Origin: Eubacteriales bacterium
GTDB lineage: Bacteria > Bacillota > Clostridia > Oscillospirales > CAG-272
Reading direction: 5' to 3'
Length of the DNA: 32,970 bases
Assembly (NCBI GenBank): GCA_045129715.1
Contig: JBGVKA010000070.1
Span: 1 to 32,970 of the forward strand
In this document: piece after piece, positions 1 through 32,970 of the stretch
Layout of the letters: each line of letters opens with the position of its first letter
Numbering within the stretch: position 1 is the stretch's first letter
Notes under the pieces: model-generated
The model's database searches: none
Seen by the model: the letters and a program-made list of their open reading frames with translations, nothing else
What the model was told of the DNA's origin: nothing
Translations under genes and position numbers: made by a program

Positions 1-160
1 CACTCCCGTGTCGTGAGCTGTTTGCTATTCGTCGGTCGGACACGACGAATGACGCAATATACCGCGAGCGGTATGCGCAAATCAGATTATTTAGGAACAA
101 TCCAATCCCTTTGCCAACTCGCGTGCGTGGGACTTCGCTTCGAAAAACGTTTATGTGCGC
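1..160 (+). other. Unidentified structured sequence, probably the 3' part of an inserted element or ncRNA (left end outside the window)
   Basis: Nested stems: 27-34/43-50 (perfect 8 bp), 59-64/69-74, 18-25/77-85 (1-nt bulge) and 4-17/118-132 (G-U rich on the + strand). Homology to the 28250 peptide gene stops abruptly at about 161. Confidence 0.4.
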
Positions 161-229
161 TCACCCGGAACCGAGACTCCTTGGTACGAGGAGAATGACG
201 GAAGCTGGGAGATCAGCGCAAAGGCGTAA
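161..229 (+). pseudogene. 3' half of a small peptide gene paralogous to 28250..28384 (SPGTETPWYEENDGSWEISAKA*), leader half missing or interrupted
   Basis: 16/22 aa identical to the C-terminus of the 28250 peptide, with synonymous changes (gga/ggt, gag/gaa, act/aca, atc/ata, agc/agt). The upstream frame does not encode the leader and has a TAG at 92-94. Confidence 0.7.
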
Positions 230-21684: not shown

Positions 21685-22503
21685 TCAGATGTCATTATTT
21701 GATTTAAGGGTGGTGTATTCCTTTGGCGAATATCCCGTAAGAGCCTTGAATACCCTGTAAAAATTACGGTCACTGCCGAAGCCGCATTCAAGCGCAATGC
21801 TCAGCATATTGAAATTCTTTTCGGCCATAAGCTTCTTTGCGTATTCGACTCGAAGGGAATTGATGAGCATAGAAAAGCTCGTTCCGGGCAGGTCCTCGAT
21901 AACGTGTGAAATATAGCTTGGACTGTACCCGAGCTCAGCACCGACCGAGGAGCGTGTTAGGTTTTCACGGAAATGCTCGGCTACGTACATTATTATCTCG
22001 GTCAAGGCGTTGTTCTTGATCTCTCTTTTTATCTGCGGCACCTTCTCGGTGTATTCGTTGAGTATGGCGTAGGCGAGAGCCTTTATTTTCATCATAAGGC
22101 GGTGGTTTGCTTCGAGGTCAACGACCTTATCCCCCATGTCCAAAAGATTTTCGCGAACGAAGGATGCGAGTCCAAACGAAGCGGTAAATCCGCAGCACTC
22201 ACCATTTATCAGCGCCATATCGTTCGAAATAAAGTCGGATACAAACGTGTTCGAGGGGATGAGTATCCACCTTTTAGTGCCTTCCTTCGTTTTGAAGCTA
22301 TGCGCTCGGAAGGGGCTTATAACGATAACGTCACCCTCGTGCAGTATTTCGGTCTTTGAATCGACCGTCAGCTCGACCTCGCCCTCAAGGATAAACTGTA
22401 TCTCGGTAAATTGGTGTATTCTCGTCGGAAAATCGTAAATGCCGTCCGCGATGAAGCATTTGACGGAGTTATTAAAGCCGAAGTTTTGTATTGAAACGTA
22501 CAT
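21685..22503 (-). CDS. AraC family transcriptional regulator (cupin + double HTH), no. 1
   Basis: RIHQFTEI cupin, LGYSPSYISH, LRVEYAKKLM and IALECGFGSDRNFYRVFKALTGYSPKEY. Start moved to 22503 because of a GGAGG RBS. Confidence 0.95.
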   Translation of the reverse strand: MYVSIQNFGFNNSVKCFIADGIYDFPTRIHQFTEIQFILEGEVELTVDSKTEILHEGDVIVISPFRAHSFKTKEGTKRWILIPSNTFVSDFISNDMALINGECCGFTASFGLASFVRENLLDMGDKVVDLEANHRLMMKIKALAYAILNEYTEKVPQIKREIKNNALTEIIMYVAEHFRENLTRSSVGAELGYSPSYISHVIEDLPGTSFSMLINSLRVEYAKKLMAEKNFNMLSIALECGFGSDRNFYRVFKALTGYSPKEYTTLKSNNDI

Positions 22504-22539
22504 AAACGTCCTCCGAATAAAAAAGCTTATAGCACTATA

Positions 22540-22593
22540 TGGCACAAATTATACCACATTTGGCACACTTTGTCAATGATTATATGTTAAAAT
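22540..22593. promoter_or_regulatory. Overlapping divergent promoters with candidate AraC direct-repeat sites
   Basis: Minus strand TTGACA(22576-22571)-17-TATAAT(22553-22548). Plus strand TGnTAAAAT (22585-22593) with no good -35. TGGCACA at 22540 and 22561 (21-bp period). Confidence 0.7.
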
Positions 22594-25600: not shown

Positions 25601-28214
25601 TTACTCCTTCGCATTCCTCGGAGACACTCAGTTCCTCATCTATAAGGACATTAACGAGGGTACCACTAAGTATACCAAGGCTATTTACGATTGGCTTATC
25701 GAGAACAAAGACGAGAAGAAGCTTCAGTACGTATTTGGTCTCGGTGATATCAGTGACAAGGATATGATAGCCGAATACGAATACGCGGCTTATCTCTACA
25801 GCACTCTCGGTGATGCCGGAATCAAATACGCGGCTATCCCCGGTAACCACGACGGACAGACCGCATACGTCAAGTACGATTCCGTATTCTCTCAGGATGC
25901 ATACCTTACTGACGGTGTCGTCAGCTACAAGGATGGAAGCGTTGCTAACTACTACAAGACCTTCGAGGTTGGCGAGTACAAGTATATGGTAGTAGTTCTT
26001 GAGTTCGGTGCTCCCGATGCGGTTCTTGAGTGGGCAAACAATGCCGTTGCATCGAATCCCGACAGACAGGTTATCGTTCTTACTCACGGTTACATAGGCT
26101 ACGACGGAGGCTTCCTCAGTGAGAAGGAGCTTCACGCACCTAACGCAAACAACGGTCTTAACAGCGGTGAGGAGATCTGGACAAAGTTTGTTTCTCAGCA
26201 CTCCAACATCATAATCTCCGCTTGCGGACATATCGATCCCTATAACATCAAGCAGAGATCTGACGTAGGCGTGAACGGAAATACCGTTCAGCAGTTCCTT
26301 ATCGATCCTCAGGCTCTCGATAAGACCTGGAGCTACGACACCGGTATGGTGGCTATGTTCTACTTCTCGGACGGCGGTAAGGACGTAAGAGTTGAGTACG
26401 TTTCCACGACCAAGACTCAGAGAGCAAAAGAAACCGATCCCAACGCTAAGGACGTTCTCTTCGGCGAGGCTAATCAGTTCAGCTTTACTCTCGATATCCC
26501 CACCGCAGAGAAGGTAGTTACCGCTTACGGTGAGCTCCCCTATATCAATACTAACCTTGATCTTAACGCAGCGGTTCTCTTTAAGAATAACGCAGACGGA
26601 ACCTATTCCTTCGTTGGCGGTTATGCGAGCGTTGACCTTGCGTTTGCGGAGGTTATAAAGGACGCGAGCGGAAGCTTTACCGTTCTTCTTCGCGACAACG
26701 CGAGAATGTCCTCTAAGGTATCCTTCAATAATTTCAAAGGCGATCTTACCCTCGATCTTGGCGGATACGAGCTTAAGGTTGACCAGAGCGGCAATTATCT
26801 CTTCGATATTTACAGAAATAACGCGACCTCGATAAATGCGACCTACACCGTTAAAAACGGTAGCATTACTAAGGCTCACGGAAGAGGTCTCAACTGCATT
26901 AACTACGGCACCTCTATTGCCGCAGACAGCAGCATCTCCTTCACCTACGATAACGTAACTTTCAAGTCGTTGACCTCATCCCTCGTTAACAACGTTATCT
27001 TCTGCAACTGGGAAAACGGTTACTCAAGTGCTATCACCAACAAGATGTACGTTAACGCAGTATTCAACGACTGTACGTTCGATCTTAAGAACTCTATAAA
27101 CGGCGCGCTTATGCTTTCTATGACCAACACCTCAAACGGCGGTAACGTGGTGGTTTACGACGTTACGGTCAACGGCGGTGTTATAGCGGTTAAGGACGGT
27201 GCGGACATTGAAGGTCTTTACACTCAGGACGCACTTGATAAGATCACCTTCGGCAAGACCGAGGACGGAAATTATACCGCTCTCGTAGCTCCTTACGGCT
27301 CGACCGAGCCCACCGTAGTTTATAACGGACTTGAGTTCGTTAAGGTATCCGAGAATGCAGACGAGGTAATTTACAGACTTAGACCCGTCGAGGTTGCAGA
27401 TGTAAATTATGCGCCCAAGATGAGCATAACTCTCGCTACCGAGTTCGTTATGAACGTATACGTTCCCGTAAATTATACACAAAAGTTTACATTTAACGGT
27501 GTAACCTACGATTCCGCAAACTCCTTCGGCGGTAAGGTCACCACTCTTGATGACGGATATAGCTACTACGTTATCTCCGTAGCTCTCGGCTCCTCCGAGG
27601 CTGCAAGCGAGCTCAAGCTCGTAGCTACCGTTAACGCTGAGGACACCGTTGCAACCGCTACCTTCACCTTCTCCATTCCTAAGTACGCAAAGAAGGTCAT
27701 CGCAGGCGGCAGCGAGGTGGAGAAGACTCTTGTCAAGGACGTTCTTGCTTACGTAAGAGCGGCTTACGAGTACTTCACCGAGCACAACGATAAGGCAGAG
27801 ATAGAGAGAGTTGTTGCTCTCGTTAACTCCATTATCGGAGAGGATCACGTAAGCGTTCCCACCTCGAGCGGTGTTACCGCAAAGGATAACGCAGGCATCG
27901 TTACCGACGTAACTCTTAACCTCAGCGCAAATCCCACCGTTCGCTTCTACGTGACCGATACTGCTCTTGAGTTCTATGCGAACGGCAAGAAGCTTAATAC
28001 CGTAGCATCCGCTGACGGCGGCTACGTTGAGCTTGACGTATACGCATATGCACTCGCTGAAACCATCACCTTTGGTGAGGGCGGAAGCTACCACGTCTCC
28101 GATTTCGTAAACGGTGCTAAGGGTACCGATCACGAGGCGGTTGTGAATGCGTTCGTTAAGTACGTTGAGGCGGCAGCCGATTACAGAAATGCTGTAATCG
28201 GAGGTAATAAGTAA
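22638..28214 (+). CDS. Giant secreted protein (1858 aa): signal peptide, 4 LamG/concanavalin-A-like domains, calcineurin-like metallophosphoesterase, about 290-aa unknown module, tandem C-terminal domain
   Basis: Signal peptide ending ..STGA/A. Four repeats with WxHV, YINGx, FxGxI..LALY..PLTxEEI and D.SGNGYH. GDTQ/GLGDISD/GNHD/THGY/GHID phosphoesterase motifs at about 25600-26490. Confidence 0.85.
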   Translation: MKSRINALTKITLIVLLVALVVASVAFSTGAASEIGESASEGRTFKDITKLDQRLELTRPLEDIPLTWEAEIKVEGTSDELCKGTLFGQYGGNGKNVFFNFEIFTVNGVPSPALVYVNDYTPKSQNSVVFDKNSTPIKDADGKTNTIADHIGEWVHVAITTTLVDASTNTYDFNCYINGKKAYETVQRKNVIFTESNLETAQNSNRFALGSNAVPTDPVEFPGSIRKLALYGNSLTEEEVASSYKNGVNKNGTDLIAYYDMSTVDDLWYEEDLSGNGYHLARADKVYNVNSEGRGGFDKANRLTLTKKLTETPLTVEAVIKTTSTGCTVFGNTTTSTVGCLNFEIYKSQPALCFPIDATGKRGSVIFSTPLEGVQGFTPNANEKDGFTYIAITATPTGVENTYNFDCYVNGVKAYDTITNKVAYLDAELIQAAGNLVIGGNGGSSQFSGTIRSVNLYNRPLTAAEIRASYIFESTFDGMIAGYDMSDYSHIRNPQFEADISGNGYHAQKANNTNTGKWFDTTSGGDKVAASADAAKPYFVYNTIEQMPRTYEMTVYVNGNASNEVFSSTVFGNYPNAANSCINLEFFNKGIALCLWDYDASGKLVKDTVQFTYKPTANQWLHLVVTNEVAAGKSIYKLYINGEHVDTVTSKPNVHDIIDSQTATRLFSLGGSGAKSFNGGLIDFALYSDPLTAEEVMDSFRNGVNKYDESLIAYYDLKTVAGDDFIQDLSGNNHHASRNDYTLAEGGRWFNIDEERLAVSKNYKDAPLTISAEIYIPESVNKANTIFGNFYARDYINFEITSNNKAALVINELPENLITSNSTAYIHSIVFNEEIPRGEWTTLTVVYDKYCTTDDRYALYVDGVKSTAGYTFGGIHNDKNSAGNKIVSHTFELDMEWIQRAIPFTLGRDATKCFQGKIKNLALYSEPLSEEQIASITANGVDMTSRELFAYYNLDNPENTKTFVKDETGNGYDFTYRFFESENEETYDYSFAFLGDTQFLIYKDINEGTTKYTKAIYDWLIENKDEKKLQYVFGLGDISDKDMIAEYEYAAYLYSTLGDAGIKYAAIPGNHDGQTAYVKYDSVFSQDAYLTDGVVSYKDGSVANYYKTFEVGEYKYMVVVLEFGAPDAVLEWANNAVASNPDRQVIVLTHGYIGYDGGFLSEKELHAPNANNGLNSGEEIWTKFVSQHSNIIISACGHIDPYNIKQRSDVGVNGNTVQQFLIDPQALDKTWSYDTGMVAMFYFSDGGKDVRVEYVSTTKTQRAKETDPNAKDVLFGEANQFSFTLDIPTAEKVVTAYGELPYINTNLDLNAAVLFKNNADGTYSFVGGYASVDLAFAEVIKDASGSFTVLLRDNARMSSKVSFNNFKGDLTLDLGGYELKVDQSGNYLFDIYRNNATSINATYTVKNGSITKAHGRGLNCINYGTSIAADSSISFTYDNVTFKSLTSSLVNNVIFCNWENGYSSAITNKMYVNAVFNDCTFDLKNSINGALMLSMTNTSNGGNVVVYDVTVNGGVIAVKDGADIEGLYTQDALDKITFGKTEDGNYTALVAPYGSTEPTVVYNGLEFVKVSENADEVIYRLRPVEVADVNYAPKMSITLATEFVMNVYVPVNYTQKFTFNGVTYDSANSFGGKVTTLDDGYSYYVISVALGSSEAASELKLVATVNAEDTVATATFTFSIPKYAKKVIAGGSEVEKTLVKDVLAYVRAAYEYFTEHNDKAEIERVVALVNSIIGEDHVSVPTSSGVTAKDNAGIVTDVTLNLSANPTVRFYVTDTALEFYANGKKLNTVASADGGYVELDVYAYALAETITFGEGGSYHVSDFVNGAKGTDHEAVVNAFVKYVEAAADYRNAVIGGNK

Positions 28215-28241
28215 GAGTGAATAGTGAAGAAGTGAGGTTAG
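28204..28241 (+). repeat. Heptamer-type repeat shared with the tRNA trailer (875-899, minus strand)
   Basis: 28204-28228 matches the reverse complement of 875-899 at 24/25 nt. Confidence 0.7.
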
Positions 28242-28249
28242 AAAAGAAA

Positions 28250-28384
28250 ATGAAGAATTATATTAACCCCGAAATTGAGGTTGTAGAGCTTAAGATAAAC
28301 GATATTCTTACTACATCATCAGGTACCGAAACACCTCCTTACGAGGAGACAGACGGAAGCTGGGAGATAAGTGTAAATCCTTGA
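28250..28384 (+). CDS. 44-aa acidic peptide with a lasso/RiPP-like leader (MKNYINPEIEVVELKINDILTTSSGTETPPYEETDGSWEISVNP), not in the ORF track
   Basis: ATG 35 nt after the giant gene stop, GAGGT RBS-like site, and a paralogous fragment at 161-229 with synonymous changes. Confidence 0.8.
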   Translation: MKNYINPEIEVVELKINDILTTSSGTETPPYEETDGSWEISVNP

Positions 28385-28477
28385 TCGGATTTACACAATG
28401 AAATCCATTTCGGTGAAATGGAATAAATCCACTAAGGTGGATGAAATCGCTATGCGATTAAATCCGACTTTGTCGGA
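28371..28477 (+). repeat. Five-hairpin array, copy B
   Basis: Stems at 28371-28396, 28404-28422, 28427-28442, 28446-28458 and 28463-28477, joined by TGAAATC/TAAATC linkers. Confidence 0.8.
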
Positions 28478-28485
28478 CGAAAAGC

Positions 28486-28523
28486 AAAAGACTTAGCCGG
28501 AAAAATACGGCTAAGTCTTTTTT
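28486..28523 (+). terminator. Rho-independent terminator closing the giant gene/peptide unit
   Basis: AAAAGACTTAGCCG / CGGCTAAGTCTTTT followed by a T-run. Homologous to 336-372. Confidence 0.88.
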
Positions 28524-28600
28524 GCGTGGTTTTAAATTATATAAAAGCGGTCTGTGTGACGGTGGCTTTGATGGGTAGTGTTTGATAAAAACACAGATTT

Positions 28601-28709: not shown

Positions 28710-29525
28710 TCACTCAAAAAAGCTCGTTTTGGGCTGCTCCTGCGGACCTGCAAAGAACTTTTTTCTGTACTCCGAAGGTGAGAATCCCATAATGCTTCTG
28801 AATTGCCTTAAGAACGTTCGTTCGCTTCCGAATCCGCATTCGTAACCGATCTCGGTCGTGGTTTTGTCACTTGAGGTGATAAGATATCTTGCGCGCTCGA
28901 TCCTGAGGCTTGCAAGAATGGTACAGAAATTGAGTCCGTAAAGCTTTTGTATACAGTGGGAGAGATAATTCGCACTGTATCCGAGTGCACCTGCCACGCT
29001 ATCGAGTGTGATAGGCTCGGTAAAGTGCTCGTTCATATAGGTTATCACCTTAGAAACTACACTCGTTCCGCCCATACTTTTATGTAAAGGCGTCGTGGAA
29101 ACGTAGTCGTTAAGAGCAAGATAGAGAAATCCCTTTACGTTGTAAAGGGAAAGGTCCTCACCGTTAAGTATCTTCTCGCGGAATACCGCGAGAGTTGACT
29201 CGCTCGGCTTGAACACCGCGCGCTCACCGACGTTGCCCTCGTGCTTCTTCATAAAGCTGACCGTCGTTGCAGGGGAGAAGAGGTACATTGCGAGCTTGTT
29301 TACGCCTTTGGAGGACATATTGTGGGTTTGGTAGGGGAAGATGAATGCCGCCTCGCCCGCCCTTATGTATTCCTGCTTGTCGTCAACAGTGATACGCATC
29401 TCGCCCTCAAGCATAAATATGAGCTCTGCGTATTGGTGGATATGGTTCGATACCTTATACACCTTGTTATATATCTGATGCTGAAAGGCGGCTTTTGAGC
29501 CGAAATTGTTTCCCATTATACGCAT
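28710..29525 (-). CDS. AraC family transcriptional regulator, no. 2 (paralog of no. 1)
   Basis: HIHQYAEL cupin, LGYSANYLSH, LRIERARYL and IGYECGFGSERTFLRQFRSIMGFSPSEY. GGAGG RBS. Confidence 0.95.
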   Translation of the reverse strand: MRIMGNNFGSKAAFQHQIYNKVYKVSNHIHQYAELIFMLEGEMRITVDDKQEYIRAGEAAFIFPYQTHNMSSKGVNKLAMYLFSPATTVSFMKKHEGNVGERAVFKPSESTLAVFREKILNGEDLSLYNVKGFLYLALNDYVSTTPLHKSMGGTSVVSKVITYMNEHFTEPITLDSVAGALGYSANYLSHCIQKLYGLNFCTILASLRIERARYLITSSDKTTTEIGYECGFGSERTFLRQFRSIMGFSPSEYRKKFFAGPQEQPKTSFFE

Positions 29526-29638: not shown

Positions 29639-32600
29639 ATGAAGAAATCAAGACTTATAGCACTTTCGCTCAGCTTGATAATGCTTATCTCGGCTCTCTT
29701 TGCCTTTACCGTGCCCACAGGTGCGGCAGGTGAAGAAAAGGAGCAATCGGGATTCTTTGAAAGGGCTGACAAGGATGCAAGCACCTATGCCTATTCAATC
29801 GCGGTTATCGGTGACACGCAGTCACTTTCCGATAGCGATTACGATAATAGGAATAACGATAATTATGTAAAGAGAATGGATACTCTCTATTCTTGGGTTC
29901 AGAACAATATCGAAGCAAAGAAGATCGGTCTTGTAATGGGACTTGGCGATATCGTTGAGAATTGGGAGCATCCTCTCGATTGGCCCGAGTATAAAGATAC
30001 CGACAAGGGTAATCAGAGCATTTGGGAGTGGGAGAATGCGACTCGCATTTTCAATACCTATCTTGACGGCGAAAACGGAGTAAACGTTCCTTACACTCTC
30101 GTTCGCGGTAACCACGATAGCGCGAATGCGTATAACGCCTTTGTCACAAGCGAAAATATGTCGGCATACAGAGAACAGTTCGCCTCCGATAACGCAGGCT
30201 TCTACGTTGATTCAAATGGCGTTATCAAGTATGATAACTCCTATATGAAGCTTACTCTCGGAACAACCAAGTGGCTCGTTATGACTCTCGATTACGGAAT
30301 TACCGAGCGTGAGCTTGACTGGGCGGGTGACGTGATTGCCGAGAACCCCGATTACAGAGTTATTCTCTCTATGCATAGCTATCTCTATCACGATAAGACG
30401 ATAGATGGAGAGGGCGATACGCAAAGCACAGCATTCCCCAATCCTAACTGGGATTATACTATGGATATGCGAGGCAACAACAAGACCGATGAAAACCCCG
30501 AGGGTCCTGTTTACAATCCCGACGGTATCTGGGAAAGACTTGTTTCGAGACATTCCAATATCGAGATCGTGCTTTCGGGACATATTCCCAACAGCGCTAC
30601 TCAGATGTCACAGCTTGTCGGTGATAACGGAAATACCGTGACTCAGATTCTTGTCGACCCTCAGTCTATGGATCTCCCCGCTAACAACACCAGTGGATGC
30701 GGAATGGTAGCTATGCTCTATTTCAACGAGGACGGCACGCTCCAAGACTCTCAGTGGGATGAAAAGACTATTGATCTTGAATGGTATTCGACTATTAAGC
30801 AGAAGTACTTTAAGGAAGCTAACCAGTTCACCATCGACGTTAATTTGTATGACGGCGGTATTAAGACCGAAAATTACGGTACTATCCCCGCAAAATATGC
30901 TGACACGGAAAAATATCCTTTTGTAACCTTTGGTTACGATAGAGATATCGACGAATACTTCTTCCTTGGCGCATACAGCAGCTGGTCGGATTCGAGCACG
31001 GGTGCATATCCTGCTCTTTCGACAATTTCGGGTGCTGCTAAAAAGGTTCCCGCTTACGTTCTTCTTCGCCGTGATTACACATCTGAAATAAGTAAGTCTT
31101 ATGCGATGGGTAAGCTCACGCTTATGGAGGTCAACCTCGACCTTAACGGATTTACCGTAACCACGGGCAACAACGCCTTCTTCAGCACCAATCTCGGAAC
31201 CGCTAATGCAAAAACGACGCTTAACGTATTCGGAAAAGAGGGATCGAAGATTCTTAACGGAAGTTCCTACCGATCCTTTATAGTTCTCGGAGCTACCAGC
31301 TCGGGCTCGGGCGCAAGCTTTACTTATAATTTTAGCGGCATTACCTTTGGATTTGCCGAAGGAACGACCACAACGAAGCTTGTAGCAGAAACCTTTGATA
31401 TGGCTTCGAGCAATAATTCTCCTATAACTATTTCACAAAGCCTCAACTTTGAAAATTGCACGTTTGATCTTAAGACGAACAAGCCGAGCAATTCCGTGGT
31501 CCTCTTCAAGCTTAATGAATCCGTGGGAGCAGGATTTAACGTTTGCTCGACGGGCGTTAAGGTAGACGGCGGAAAGATTATCGCAAACGATATGACCTCT
31601 GTCGAAATCTGCAAGAAGAATGCAACCGACACGATAACCTTCAACGAGGGCAAGTCGGGTGAATATACCACCTTTGAGCTTTCCTCGGGTGCCGCGGCTC
31701 CCACCGAGGCTCTCAAGAACTCGCTTGGCGAGGATCTTGAATACGTAAGCCGCGGAAACGGAGTTTACGGCTTGGAGAAGGCTACCGAAAAGCGCGGAGT
31801 TATCGACGTTTGGCTCATCGGCGGACAGTCCAATGCCGCAGGATACGGCAGTGACGGACTCACCGATGCTAAATACGATTCAAGATATACGAACGGCTTT
31901 GACAATATCCTTTACTACGGTGCAGGTGACAATAACGCGAAGGATTCCTTCGTTCCCCTGACCGTAGGTCTCGGAAACAAGGCAACCTCCGTTGGTGCCG
32001 AGGTCGGAATTGCCAAGATGCTCGGTGACACGGACACTATGAACGCGGTCATCAAGCTCGGACGCGGTGCATCCTACCTCTATCCCAACACCACGGCAAG
32101 TGCATCCCAGAATTACGGAACGTGGACGTCTCCCACCTATATAAAGACTCACGGTATCGATACCGACGGAACTCTTATCGGTGCGCTTTATAACGATTTT
32201 ATCGAGACCGTTGCCGATGCGATAGCAATCCTTAAGGCACAGGGCTACACACCCGTCATCCGCGGTATGTGGTGGATGCAGGGCGAGGCGGAGAGCTCCG
32301 ATGCGACCACCGCTGCGGCTTACCCCGAGCTTCTTGAGTGTCTTATCAACGACCTCAGAAGAGATATCGAGGCGGCGTGCGGTGTTGAAAGCTCGGATAT
32401 GCCCTTCGTTGCAGGCAATATTCTCAGAAATCCCGCAAAGGATGCTGACGGAAACTTCGTTTATTCCCAGCCCGCATTCCTTGCAGACATCAATGCGGCT
32501 CAGGCGAGCGTTGCCAAAAAGCTTAATAACGTTTACACCGTGGCTACCGCTCATCTTCCTCAGATAGATAACTGGCACTTCACGGCAGACGCTCAGCAGT

Positions 32601-32970
32601 ATCTCGGCGAGCAGTTCGTCAAGAACGTGGTATATTCGTCGGGTAAATACAGCGTATCGATTGACGGTATCGCGGCAGAGGGAACCGGCTTCGGAGCCTA
32701 CGCTCCCGGTGAAACGGTTACCGTAACCGTTTCGGGCAGAGACGGTTGGCTTGTTAAAAAGGCTTATTACACCATTTCGGGTGCGACTCCTATTGAGATC
32801 GCCGTAGCCTCCGGTAACGTTACCTATACCTTCACGATGCCCACGTCTGACGTTACGATCTCGGTAGATACTGAGGATACCGGTGCGGTAAGCACGAAAT
32901 ACGGAAGCATTCCCGCAGTGTTTACCGATGCACAAAAATATCCCTTCGTTCTCTTCAAGAACGGTGAATT
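29639..32970 (+). CDS. Giant secreted protein (partial, at least 1110 aa, runs off the window): signal peptide, metallophosphoesterase, about 290-aa module, SASA/CE6-type SGNH acetylesterase, small beta repeat, start of another module
   Basis: AAGGAG RBS and MKKSRLIALSLSLIMLISALFAFTVPTGA signal. GDTQ/GLGDIVE/GNHD/MHSY/SGHIP motifs, then GGQSNA (about 31820), WWMQGEAE and DNWH (32567-32578). No in-frame stop found by manual translation. Confidence 0.88.
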   Translation, partial: MKKSRLIALSLSLIMLISALFAFTVPTGAAGEEKEQSGFFERADKDASTYAYSIAVIGDTQSLSDSDYDNRNNDNYVKRMDTLYSWVQNNIEAKKIGLVMGLGDIVENWEHPLDWPEYKDTDKGNQSIWEWENATRIFNTYLDGENGVNVPYTLVRGNHDSANAYNAFVTSENMSAYREQFASDNAGFYVDSNGVIKYDNSYMKLTLGTTKWLVMTLDYGITERELDWAGDVIAENPDYRVILSMHSYLYHDKTIDGEGDTQSTAFPNPNWDYTMDMRGNNKTDENPEGPVYNPDGIWERLVSRHSNIEIVLSGHIPNSATQMSQLVGDNGNTVTQILVDPQSMDLPANNTSGCGMVAMLYFNEDGTLQDSQWDEKTIDLEWYSTIKQKYFKEANQFTIDVNLYDGGIKTENYGTIPAKYADTEKYPFVTFGYDRDIDEYFFLGAYSSWSDSSTGAYPALSTISGAAKKVPAYVLLRRDYTSEISKSYAMGKLTLMEVNLDLNGFTVTTGNNAFFSTNLGTANAKTTLNVFGKEGSKILNGSSYRSFIVLGATSSGSGASFTYNFSGITFGFAEGTTTTKLVAETFDMASSNNSPITISQSLNFENCTFDLKTNKPSNSVVLFKLNESVGAGFNVCSTGVKVDGGKIIANDMTSVEICKKNATDTITFNEGKSGEYTTFELSSGAAAPTEALKNSLGEDLEYVSRGNGVYGLEKATEKRGVIDVWLIGGQSNAAGYGSDGLTDAKYDSRYTNGFDNILYYGAGDNNAKDSFVPLTVGLGNKATSVGAEVGIAKMLGDTDTMNAVIKLGRGASYLYPNTTASASQNYGTWTSPTYIKTHGIDTDGTLIGALYNDFIETVADAIAILKAQGYTPVIRGMWWMQGEAESSDATTAAAYPELLECLINDLRRDIEAACGVESSDMPFVAGNILRNPAKDADGNFVYSQPAFLADINAAQASVAKKLNNVYTVATAHLPQIDNWHFTADAQQYLGEQFVKNVVYSSGKYSVSIDGIAAEGTGFGAYAPGETVTVTVSGRDGWLVKKAYYTISGATPIEIAVASGNVTYTFTMPTSDVTISVDTEDTGAVSTKYGSIPAVFTDAQKYPFVLFKNGE

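Follow-up and report, generated by a model that had tools for sequence, protein, structure and literature searches.

A Clostridial family of 44-residue peptides encoded behind giant secreted-protein genes: probable precursors of the linear polyphosphorylated peptide kind

The 32,970-nucleotide stretch of DNA analysed here (the window) carries, directly behind the gene for a giant secreted protein, a small gene for a 44-residue peptide. We consider this 44-mer to be probably a precursor of the linear polyphosphorylated peptide (LPP) kind, made by gene sets of the type lppA-K-B-S-D-N, and to represent a Clostridial branch of that system. The assignment is by analogy with the LPPs of Bacilli, and draws on a conserved leader, on maturation genes adjoining the family in other genomes, and on a scattered partial set of such genes in the same genome. 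The window is the entire contig C70 of a 277-contig, 2.04-Mb assembly of a rumen-type bacterium, with an estimated completeness of 82.8%. G000 denotes this genome, C-numbers its contigs and L-numbers the loci examined. Comparisons across the class used a sample of 400 genomes. The family count is 48 of 399, with G000 and 47 others as carriers of the peptide family and 351 non-carriers. The carriers span 29 genera besides that of G000, and all carrier versus non-carrier statistics ignore kinship, although relatives are not independent.

The open reading frame (ORF) is real, and its translation is identical to the peptide quoted in an earlier reading of the window made from its letters alone (the sequence-only reading). 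No Pfam or NCBIfam model matches the 44-mer, and its matches in the ESM Atlas are only clusters labelled 'hypothetical protein', at 0.92. Paralogs were collected within the genome by tblastn of the 44-mer (E<=0.001) and by a hidden Markov model (HMM) of the family. Each search returned 33 matches, and 25 copies are full length. The DNA of all 25 differs. Entropy at the three codon positions was 0.42, 0.23 and 1.03 bits, the third position thus showing 2.4-4.4 times the variation of the first two. Pooled Nei-Gojobori analysis of 300 pairs from these copies gave a non-synonymous divergence (dN) of 0.154, a synonymous divergence (dS) of 1.227 and a dN/dS of 0.126. The sequence-only reading had proposed purifying selection from a comparison with one paralog fragment, and this is borne out by a ratio that lies far from the value near 1 that would count against it. 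Its five synonymous changes relative to that fragment were also found, together with eight non-synonymous codon differences. The identity of 16/22 residues that it gave was roughly right, the actual count being 16/24 over residues 18-41, or 16/19 over S-P-G...E-I-S. Among the copies of this genome, constraint is strongest in the tail, where dN/dS is 0.083 (residues 24-40) against 0.164 for residues 1-23. At Ser23 each of the four TCN codons is used, and Ser37 is written as AGC in some copies and as TCT in others. AAGGAGG stands 6-9 nt upstream of the ATG in most copies; the window copy and those on C120 and C129 have the weaker GAGG, 12 nt away. Judged from the codon-level pattern, each copy looks individually maintained.

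Could the frame nevertheless be a by-product of a repeated DNA element, with no functional gene in it? Many copies do lie less than 300 nt from contig ends, and several repeat families and partial copies flank the peptide genes. A passive repeat would leave unexplained the excess of third-position entropy, the use of both AGC and TCT for Ser37 and a low dN/dS at a dS of about 1.2. Moreover, start codon, Shine-Dalgarno (SD) site and length are all kept, and the peptide is conserved at the amino-acid level over 30 of the 217 sampled genera. The codon-level pattern rules this reading out, and we regard it as scarcely credible.

The part conserved across the wider family is the N-terminal leader. 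The sequence-only reading had noted a YxxPxI motif of the type bound by lasso RiPP recognition elements (RREs; RiPP, ribosomally synthesised and post-translationally modified peptide). The motif is indeed present and conserved: Tyr4 and Pro7 occur in 25/25 paralogs and Ile9 in 23/25. The same holds outside the genome. A profile search covering 1.84 billion protein representatives recovered 1026 clusters at E<=0.001, of which 43 reach E<=1e-10. Among the 150 matches listed, nearly all are 31-85 residues long, the exceptions being one of 107 residues and P0042, of 401 residues. A word-indexed search added 24 close relatives, on short contigs. In 46 fetched sequences the N-terminus M-K-K-Y-x-x-P-E-I/L-E ... 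D-V/I-I-T-T-S is conserved, and the tails are short and very different. An alignment of 40 diverse members left M1, D18 and S23 invariant, with P7, E10 and G25 nearly so. The family is present in 18 of 24 other species of the same genus and, as counted above, in 48 of 399 sampled class genomes. Elsewhere a genome holds 1-11 copies, compared with 33 matches in G000. Tails resemble one another inside a genome and differ from species to species; the six copies of genome G014, for instance, have one common tail, unrelated to that of G000.

In other genomes the family adjoins candidate maturation genes. A free-standing RRE was present in all five other carriers tested, and PF13471, the lasso B2 protease model, was absent from all five. 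In these carriers the RRE gene is followed, often with an overlap, by a gene for a soluble protein of 138-177 residues with weak matches to archaeal-type and SipW signal peptidase I models (SpI-like protein). In most of them the RRE gene is preceded by one for a P-loop protein of 220-237 residues, with weak matches to the HprK_rel_A, HprK_rel_B and ScmC models. Nine genomes, drawn from eight genera, encode a family peptide 0.1-2.2 kb from an SpI-like peptidase gene, on the same strand. The operon order is secreted protein, peptide, HprK-like protein (8/9), PqqD (6/9) and SpI-like peptidase, rearranged in L094. Genes for PF14907 nucleotidyltransferases follow in L092 and L099, with an ORF of the ATP-binding cassette (ABC) type also following in L099, and ABC exporter genes adjoin the RRE in L077 and L078. 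Across the class sample an SpI-like protein was found in 156 of 400 genomes, that is in 45 of the 47 other carriers (not in G203 and G365) and in 111 of the 351 non-carriers (Fisher one-sided 3e-18).

The SpI-like protein has an invariant Ser28 (in G-x-S-M-x-P), His66 and Asp81. Its AlphaFold model (mean predicted local distance difference test, pLDDT, 81.6) has the human SEC11 catalytic subunit as its best fold match (E 1.1e-3, TM-score 0.51), followed by LexA, lambda repressor, UmuD and SpsB. Compared with solved structures, the RRE profile matched TbiB1 at 1e-9, TfuB1 at 8e-9, 9x90_B at 9e-8 and LppB (9x8z_B) at 6e-6, and true PqqD at 0.81.

Parts of this set are also found in G000, on contigs other than the window. 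Its two PF05402 matches are the SCIFF radical-SAM maturase on C77 and a free-standing RRE on C218. The HprK-like gene on C214 lies between the gene for a 997-residue membrane-anchored protein and a chain-length-determinant-like gene, and the PF14907 gene on C107 sits within a locus of glycosyltransferase, flippase and epimerase genes. The envelope-polysaccharide context of C107:185-11220 and C214:3-5133 recalls the capsule-locus setting of LPP clusters in Bacilli. Downstream of the RRE stop codon on C218, an open frame of 22 codons is cut off by the contig end, and its likeness to the N-termini of the cassette peptidases is no more than loose. When own RRE and 44-mer were modelled together, both as alignments of our own making, the predicted complex scored 0.42, compared with 0.02 for the best of three controls. 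The runs agreed in at least 96% of contacts, with a partner pLDDT of at least 52. Of 157 solved complexes 116 reach the mark used, as do 2 of 215 mismatched pairs; at scores of 0.60 or less it is reached by only 18 solved complexes, along with both of the mismatches that passed. This hints that the RRE may bind the peptide leader, but with our own alignments as input and like complexes already solved, the pass may reflect what the predictor had learned from those. Maturation in trans of a leader-bearing precursor, which the sequence-only reading had put forward as an orphan RiPP, fits these observations: it is supported for the family, which adjoins RRE, kinase-like and peptidase genes in nine genomes, and partly for G000, where RRE, HprK-like and PF14907 genes lie on other contigs.

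These arrangements resemble the LPP system, whose gene set was defined in Bacilli, including Paenibacillus alginolyticus DSM5050, by Popov et al. (Nat Commun 2026; PMC13381572). According to the main text of that paper, LPP precursors of 35-200 residues have the N-terminal sequence YxxPxVLxHQxIxFETxxS and variable C-termini, and [Y/W]xxPx[L/V/I/F/A] is the motif bound by lasso and LPP RREs. Within the leader, the LPP RRE contacts Tyr-16 and Pro-13. When the genes are expressed heterologously, the kinase adds up to four phosphates on Ser+3, and the SpI-like LppS cleaves after Thr-1, for which the RRE and LppS residues S29, H68 and D93 are needed. Multiple phosphorylation and RRE-dependent leader cleavage are demonstrated there only for LppA of P. 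alginolyticus, and the authors describe the biological role of LPPs as unknown. The peptides described here, as far as that account goes, resemble LPPs in having a conserved N-terminal YxxPx[V/I], a conserved Ser towards the end of the motif and highly variable C-termini. The catalytic residues S29/H68/D93 of LppS can be compared with Ser28/His66/Asp81 of the cassette peptidase, and both systems have some of their genes in polysaccharide loci (C107 and C214 in G000). They differ in that the precursors here, known from their genes alone, are short (about 31-60 residues) and encoded directly behind secreted-protein genes. They differ also in that about 25 precursor copies are dispersed in G000, far from the enzymes, whereas the nine other genomes have a precursor inside the cluster.

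By this analogy a maturation route can be proposed. The peptide gene would be co-transcribed with the preceding giant gene and translated in the cytoplasm. The leader Tyr4-x-x-Pro7-x-Ile9 may then be bound as a beta-strand by the PqqD-type protein encoded on C218; motif and RRE are both present, and the predicted complex is a weak pointer to the binding itself. The HprK-related kinase-like protein of C214 would phosphorylate the serine right after the leader, most likely the invariant Ser23, and a soluble SipW-type Ser-His-Asp peptidase would cut off the leader within Asp18-Ser23, a cleavage shown for LppS in Paenibacillus. We place cleavage and acceptor there because Ser23 lies one position past the Ser of the LPP logo and Asp18 aligns with Glu-2. 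The PF14907 nucleotidyltransferase may further decorate the acidic tail, and an MsbA-like ABC pump may export the product. A single maturation set would thus serve some 25 dispersed precursor genes. The mature peptide would act with or for exoproteins at the cell envelope, since each copy is tied to one exoprotein gene.

Several observations weigh against the LPP assignment. The spacing from Tyr to Ser is 19 here and 18 in the published LPP logo; the H-Q of that logo is not shared, and D-V-I/L-T-T-S stands here where LPPs have F-E-T-x-x-S. The RRE profile matches lasso B1 proteins better than LppB. PqqD went undetected in L093, L095 and L100, and the HprK-like gene in L100. The SpI-like gene is also found in 32% of non-carriers, so that it is not specific to the HMM-detected peptide family. 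In G000 itself no SpI-like gene was found in the assembly, which is 82.8% complete and has the RRE at a contig end, and the maturation genes lie on three contigs, with no precursor copy seen beside any of them. Finally, the LPP model gives no reason why the copies follow exoprotein genes, as they do in the genome, in the nine operons and at most other loci, and it leaves unexplained some 25 exoprotein-peptide pairs with nearly identical tails in one species.

A lasso peptide was the specific product suggested by the sequence-only reading, and the family does share features with the lasso clusters of the paeninodin type and of rumen Firmicutes. As those clusters are described in the portions of PMC7533575 and PMC13381572 that concern them, they combine a [Y/W]xxPx[L/V/I] leader with a separate B1 RRE, their tailoring genes are of the HPr-kinase-like and nucleotidyltransferase kinds, and they include an ABC exporter; TbiB1 and TfuB1 are the best matches of our RRE profile. 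HPr-kinase, PqqD and nucleotidyltransferase genes accompany genuine rumen Firmicutes lasso clusters (PMC7533575, in the part that deals with these). If the window copy is cut after T-T-S, it has Thr at -2 and Glu at position 9, as the sequence-only reading had said; that arrangement does not extend to the family, because 24/25 paralogs have Pro at position 1, so that the proposed ring from residue 1 to Glu9 is not conserved. The lasso core pattern (Gly/Ala/Ser/Cys at the start, Asp/Glu at 7-9) occurs in the window copy only, and family tails in other genomes often have no Asp/Glu at 7-9. The enzymes are wanting as well. The window was said to hold no lasso cyclase, peptidase or RRE gene, and neither its 18 larger ORFs nor the peptide gave a match to PF00733, PF13471 or PF05402. 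The wider search for lasso B1, B2, C and RRE genes that had been suggested did yield the RRE on C218. PF13471 was not found in G000 (82.8% complete), and the sole PF00733 match there, of 24.6 bits and covering 40 profile positions, is to a 336-residue PP-loop ORF resembling GMP synthase. None of the 47 carriers is among the seven sampled genomes with a bona fide B2 protein over the cut-off. No cyclase-like ORF was seen among the Pfam-scanned neighbours in the operon loci, where part of the ORFs were scanned. Compared with those clusters, the family lacks a macrolactam cyclase, a transglutaminase-like B2, in whose place stands a serine peptidase, and the conserved Gly1 ... Asp/Glu7-9 ring pattern. 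With no B2 protease in G000 or in the five carriers tested, no genuine cyclase in G000 or among the operon neighbours scanned and no conserved ring residues, the lasso reading does not hold. A true lasso precursor whose B2 protease and Asn-synthetase-like cyclase happen to lie in the unassembled 17% of the genome seems to us exceedingly improbable.

Other processing routes were considered and dropped. A double-glycine leader with a C39 peptidase exporter would need PF03412, which was not found in G000. Graspetide or ATP-grasp and radical-SAM maturation were set aside as well; the only RRE-bearing radical SAM enzyme of the genome is the SCIFF maturase, which acts on Cys-rich peptides, and the 44-mer has no Cys. 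Cleavage after Gly25 by the signal-peptidase -3/-1 rule was given up in favour of the LppA analogy.

The second striking feature of the family is its pairing with genes for large secreted proteins. In the window the gap between the stop codon of the giant gene and the ATG of the peptide gene is 35 nt, and no promoter-like or terminator-like site was found within 28214-28250. Promoters lie between the giant gene and the divergent AraC regulator, a consensus one at 22576-22548 (minus strand) and a promoter-like one at 22560-22588 (plus strand). The giant gene and the peptide gene are probably co-transcribed. In the genome, 22 of the 25 full copies begin 13-42 nt behind a same-strand ORF for a large or giant secreted protein. 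For two of these 22, on C191 and C45, only the last 77-84 upstream residues are visible, the contig beginning there. The copies that do not follow the rule are those on C120 (gap of 157 nt), on C203 (at the contig start) and on C136 (no large gene in front). Upstream ORFs measure 1553-2733 residues where complete, many being cut by contig starts, and those seen make up 4.7% of the genome in total. Signal-peptide calls were made by eye, as a basic and then hydrophobic N-terminus; such a segment was seen in 8 of the 10 upstream ORFs whose start lies inside a contig, the short C136 ORF included. A C-terminal module ending in ...Y-R-x-x-V... is common to 19 of 23 upstream proteins. The other four (on C35, C19, C77 and C219) have different ends and carry GDSL lipase, DUF4886 or LRR_5 domains. 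Similarly, at 31 of 40 loci in other genomes the peptide begins no more than 47 nt behind a long same-strand ORF. Where these ORFs are whole, they encode signal-peptide proteins of 347-1900 residues with varied domains. The nine exceptional loci include L017, L021 and L023, which belong to a stand-alone Cys-containing subfamily, and L062, which lies behind a GHMP kinase gene.

Such strict pairing raises the alternative that the 44-mer is an unmodified small partner of the preceding exoprotein, such as a chaperone, strand donor, anchor or secretion helper, and that the RRE, kinase and peptidase genes found beside it elsewhere serve something else. Besides the pairing itself, which extends to all nine full operons, this reading can point to short gaps and strong SD sites, which hint at matched expression, and to the C-terminal module common to 19 of the 23 upstream proteins. 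Set against this, the peptide has no signal peptide whereas the exoproteins have Sec-type N-termini, and the unrelated C-termini and domains of the four divergent upstream proteins, and of many in other genomes, offer no single docking domain. The conserved portion of the peptide is, moreover, an RRE-type leader motif, and adjacency to and co-occurrence with the maturation genes would be left unexplained. We therefore judge the unmodified partner improbable, if clearly less so than a lasso peptide. A single partner peculiar to each species, for instance a receptor or docking site, would account well for tails that are the same inside a genome and diverge from one species to the next, and short gaps with strong SD sites would suit an output matched to each exoprotein. 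A tentative extension, which we think possible but on balance unlikely, is that the matured phosphopeptide is no free-standing natural product but a dedicated exoprotein companion, made in step with the exoproteins and tethering, escorting or reporting them at the cell surface. Every giant gene for a secreted enzyme or adhesin would then come with an LPP precursor of its own. The matured peptide might be sugar-linked or joined to a capsule polymer, and a species-specific tail would fit one species-specific receptor or docking site.

Prochlorosin-type systems offer a precedent for the genomic layout. There, tens of scattered precursor genes in a small genome are matured in trans via a shared leader, and the cores are hypervariable within one genome. 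The present family is alike in that many dispersed precursors would be served by one maturation set. It differs in that the tails are nearly identical within the genome (dN/dS 0.08) and vary between species, and in that each gene is tied to an exoprotein gene.

The LPP cassette itself was already known. What is new, as far as these searches reach, is a family of Clostridial precursors that has expanded and is strictly paired with exoprotein genes; neither the family nor its arrangement was found in print within the reach of our literature searches. The main text of the LPP paper contains no occurrence of Clostridia, secreted proteins or orphan precursors (PMC13381572). Its Supplementary Data 1 lists SpI homologues of Desulfosporosinus, Dehalobacter, Anaerocolumna and an uncultured Ruminococcus, in sequence similarity network (SSN) clusters 4 and 9 and with neighbouring RREs. 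These Clostridial rows carry 'ND' in columns that we take to be the precursor columns (PMC13381572). The present family supplies a candidate precursor for such SpI and RRE clusters of Clostridia. Precursors scattered by the dozen far from their enzymes would escape cluster-centred genome mining. The gene-by-gene tie to large secreted proteins, to which about 5% of this 2-Mb genome is given over, turns the purpose of LPPs into a testable question, that of how Clostridia of the rumen and gut handle their exoproteins or organise their surface. Should the companion idea be true, it would provide a first biological role for LPPs and a new way of organising exoproteins without a wall anchor in gut Clostridia.

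Coordinates of the features discussed, in the window unless a contig is named.
Feature	Location	Strand	Remarks
Precursor-peptide gene, LppA-like (probable)	28250..28384	+	ATG at 28250, 44-codon frame, TGA at 28382-28384; 25 full-length paralogs under purifying selection
GAGG ribosome-binding-like motif	28234..28237	+	12 nt 5' of the ATG; weak and long-spaced in the window copy
Tyr4-x-x-Pro7-x-Ile9 codons, RRE-binding-type leader motif	28259..28276	+	Conserved among paralogs
Leader-like N-terminal region, residues 1-23	28250..28318	+	Closes with invariant Asp18 ... Thr21-Thr22-Ser23; from the family alignment
Acidic tail, residues 24-44, presumed core of the mature peptide	28319..28381	+	Variable between species
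Giant secreted protein, 1858 residues	22638..28214	+	Signal-peptide-like N-terminus, four Laminin_G_3 stretches, Metallophos
Divergent AraC-family regulator	21685..22545	-	Pfam HTH_18, HTH_AraC, Cupin_2
Five consecutive short hairpins	28371..28477	+	First one covers the stop codon; fold -65.6 kcal/mol, z = -10.1 against 200 shuffles
Terminator hairpin and T run	28484..28525	+	Strong terminator, listed by the site search at 28486-28521; closes the transcription unit of the giant-peptide pair
Partial copy, tail half only	146..229	+	No ATG or SD site; aligned fragment 146-217; repeat element before, hairpin array after
Free-standing PqqD-type RRE, 88 residues	C218:71-334	-	PF05402 E 7e-15; 70 nt from the contig end
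HprK-like protein	C214:1428-2225	-	Cassette-kinase profile E 3e-43
PF14907 nucleotidyltransferase	C107:8185-9378		132 bits

The shared end of the exoproteins, seen for example at 27900-28214 in the window and at loci L018, L022, L046, L048, L050, L057, L068 and L069 of this and other genera, reads ...Y-x-L/V-x-x-Y... and then continues as a helix, L-V-x-A-x-x-K/N-Y-x-x-S-A-x-x-Y-R...; it has no Pfam match. Further along the window, a second divergent AraC regulator (28710-29525, minus strand) precedes a second giant secreted-protein gene (29639-32968) with Metallophos, SASA esterase and Flg_new_2 domains, a layout that mirrors the first pair. The contig ends before the 3' end of this gene, where another peptide copy might lie. 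One giant-peptide pair, on C77, is about 2.5 kb from the SCIFF maturase gene (TIGR03974, 756 bits; L012:2289-3662), which is on the opposite strand and is probably unrelated to the family because the peptide has no Cys.

Partial copies that comprise only the tail half, without ATG or SD site, were found within 60-229 of the window and on C266 (L010), C129 (L011), C22 and C183. They trail full copies by about 130-280 nt, for example on C129 and C266. Two different repeat elements are joined to these partial copies; one, of about 130 nt, also occurs inverted on C99 and C191. Both junctions directly precede the S-P-G-T-E-T-P codons.

Hairpin arrays like that behind the window copy also occur at 230-300 in the window and behind the copies on C147, C35, C120, C252, C53 and C52. 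Each hairpin of the array has (G/A)AAATC before it, and between copies the pairing is kept while the stem sequences change. The region 28420-28488 gave a match over the whole model to Gut-1 RNA (RF01706) that stays below threshold (28.8 bits against a gathering score of 50, E 0.0015).

Two unusual forms of the peptide were noted. A subfamily with Cys in the leader, M-K-Y-E-x-P-x-C-E (L006:9419-9547 on C53, and L017, L021 and L023), has no upstream gene within 100 nt, and its member on C53 adjoins an IS3-type transposase pair. P0042 has a signal peptide and repeats resembling leucine-rich repeats that run directly into family residues 8-42 at the C-terminus; it is either a fused form or the result of a stop or start lost between two genes.

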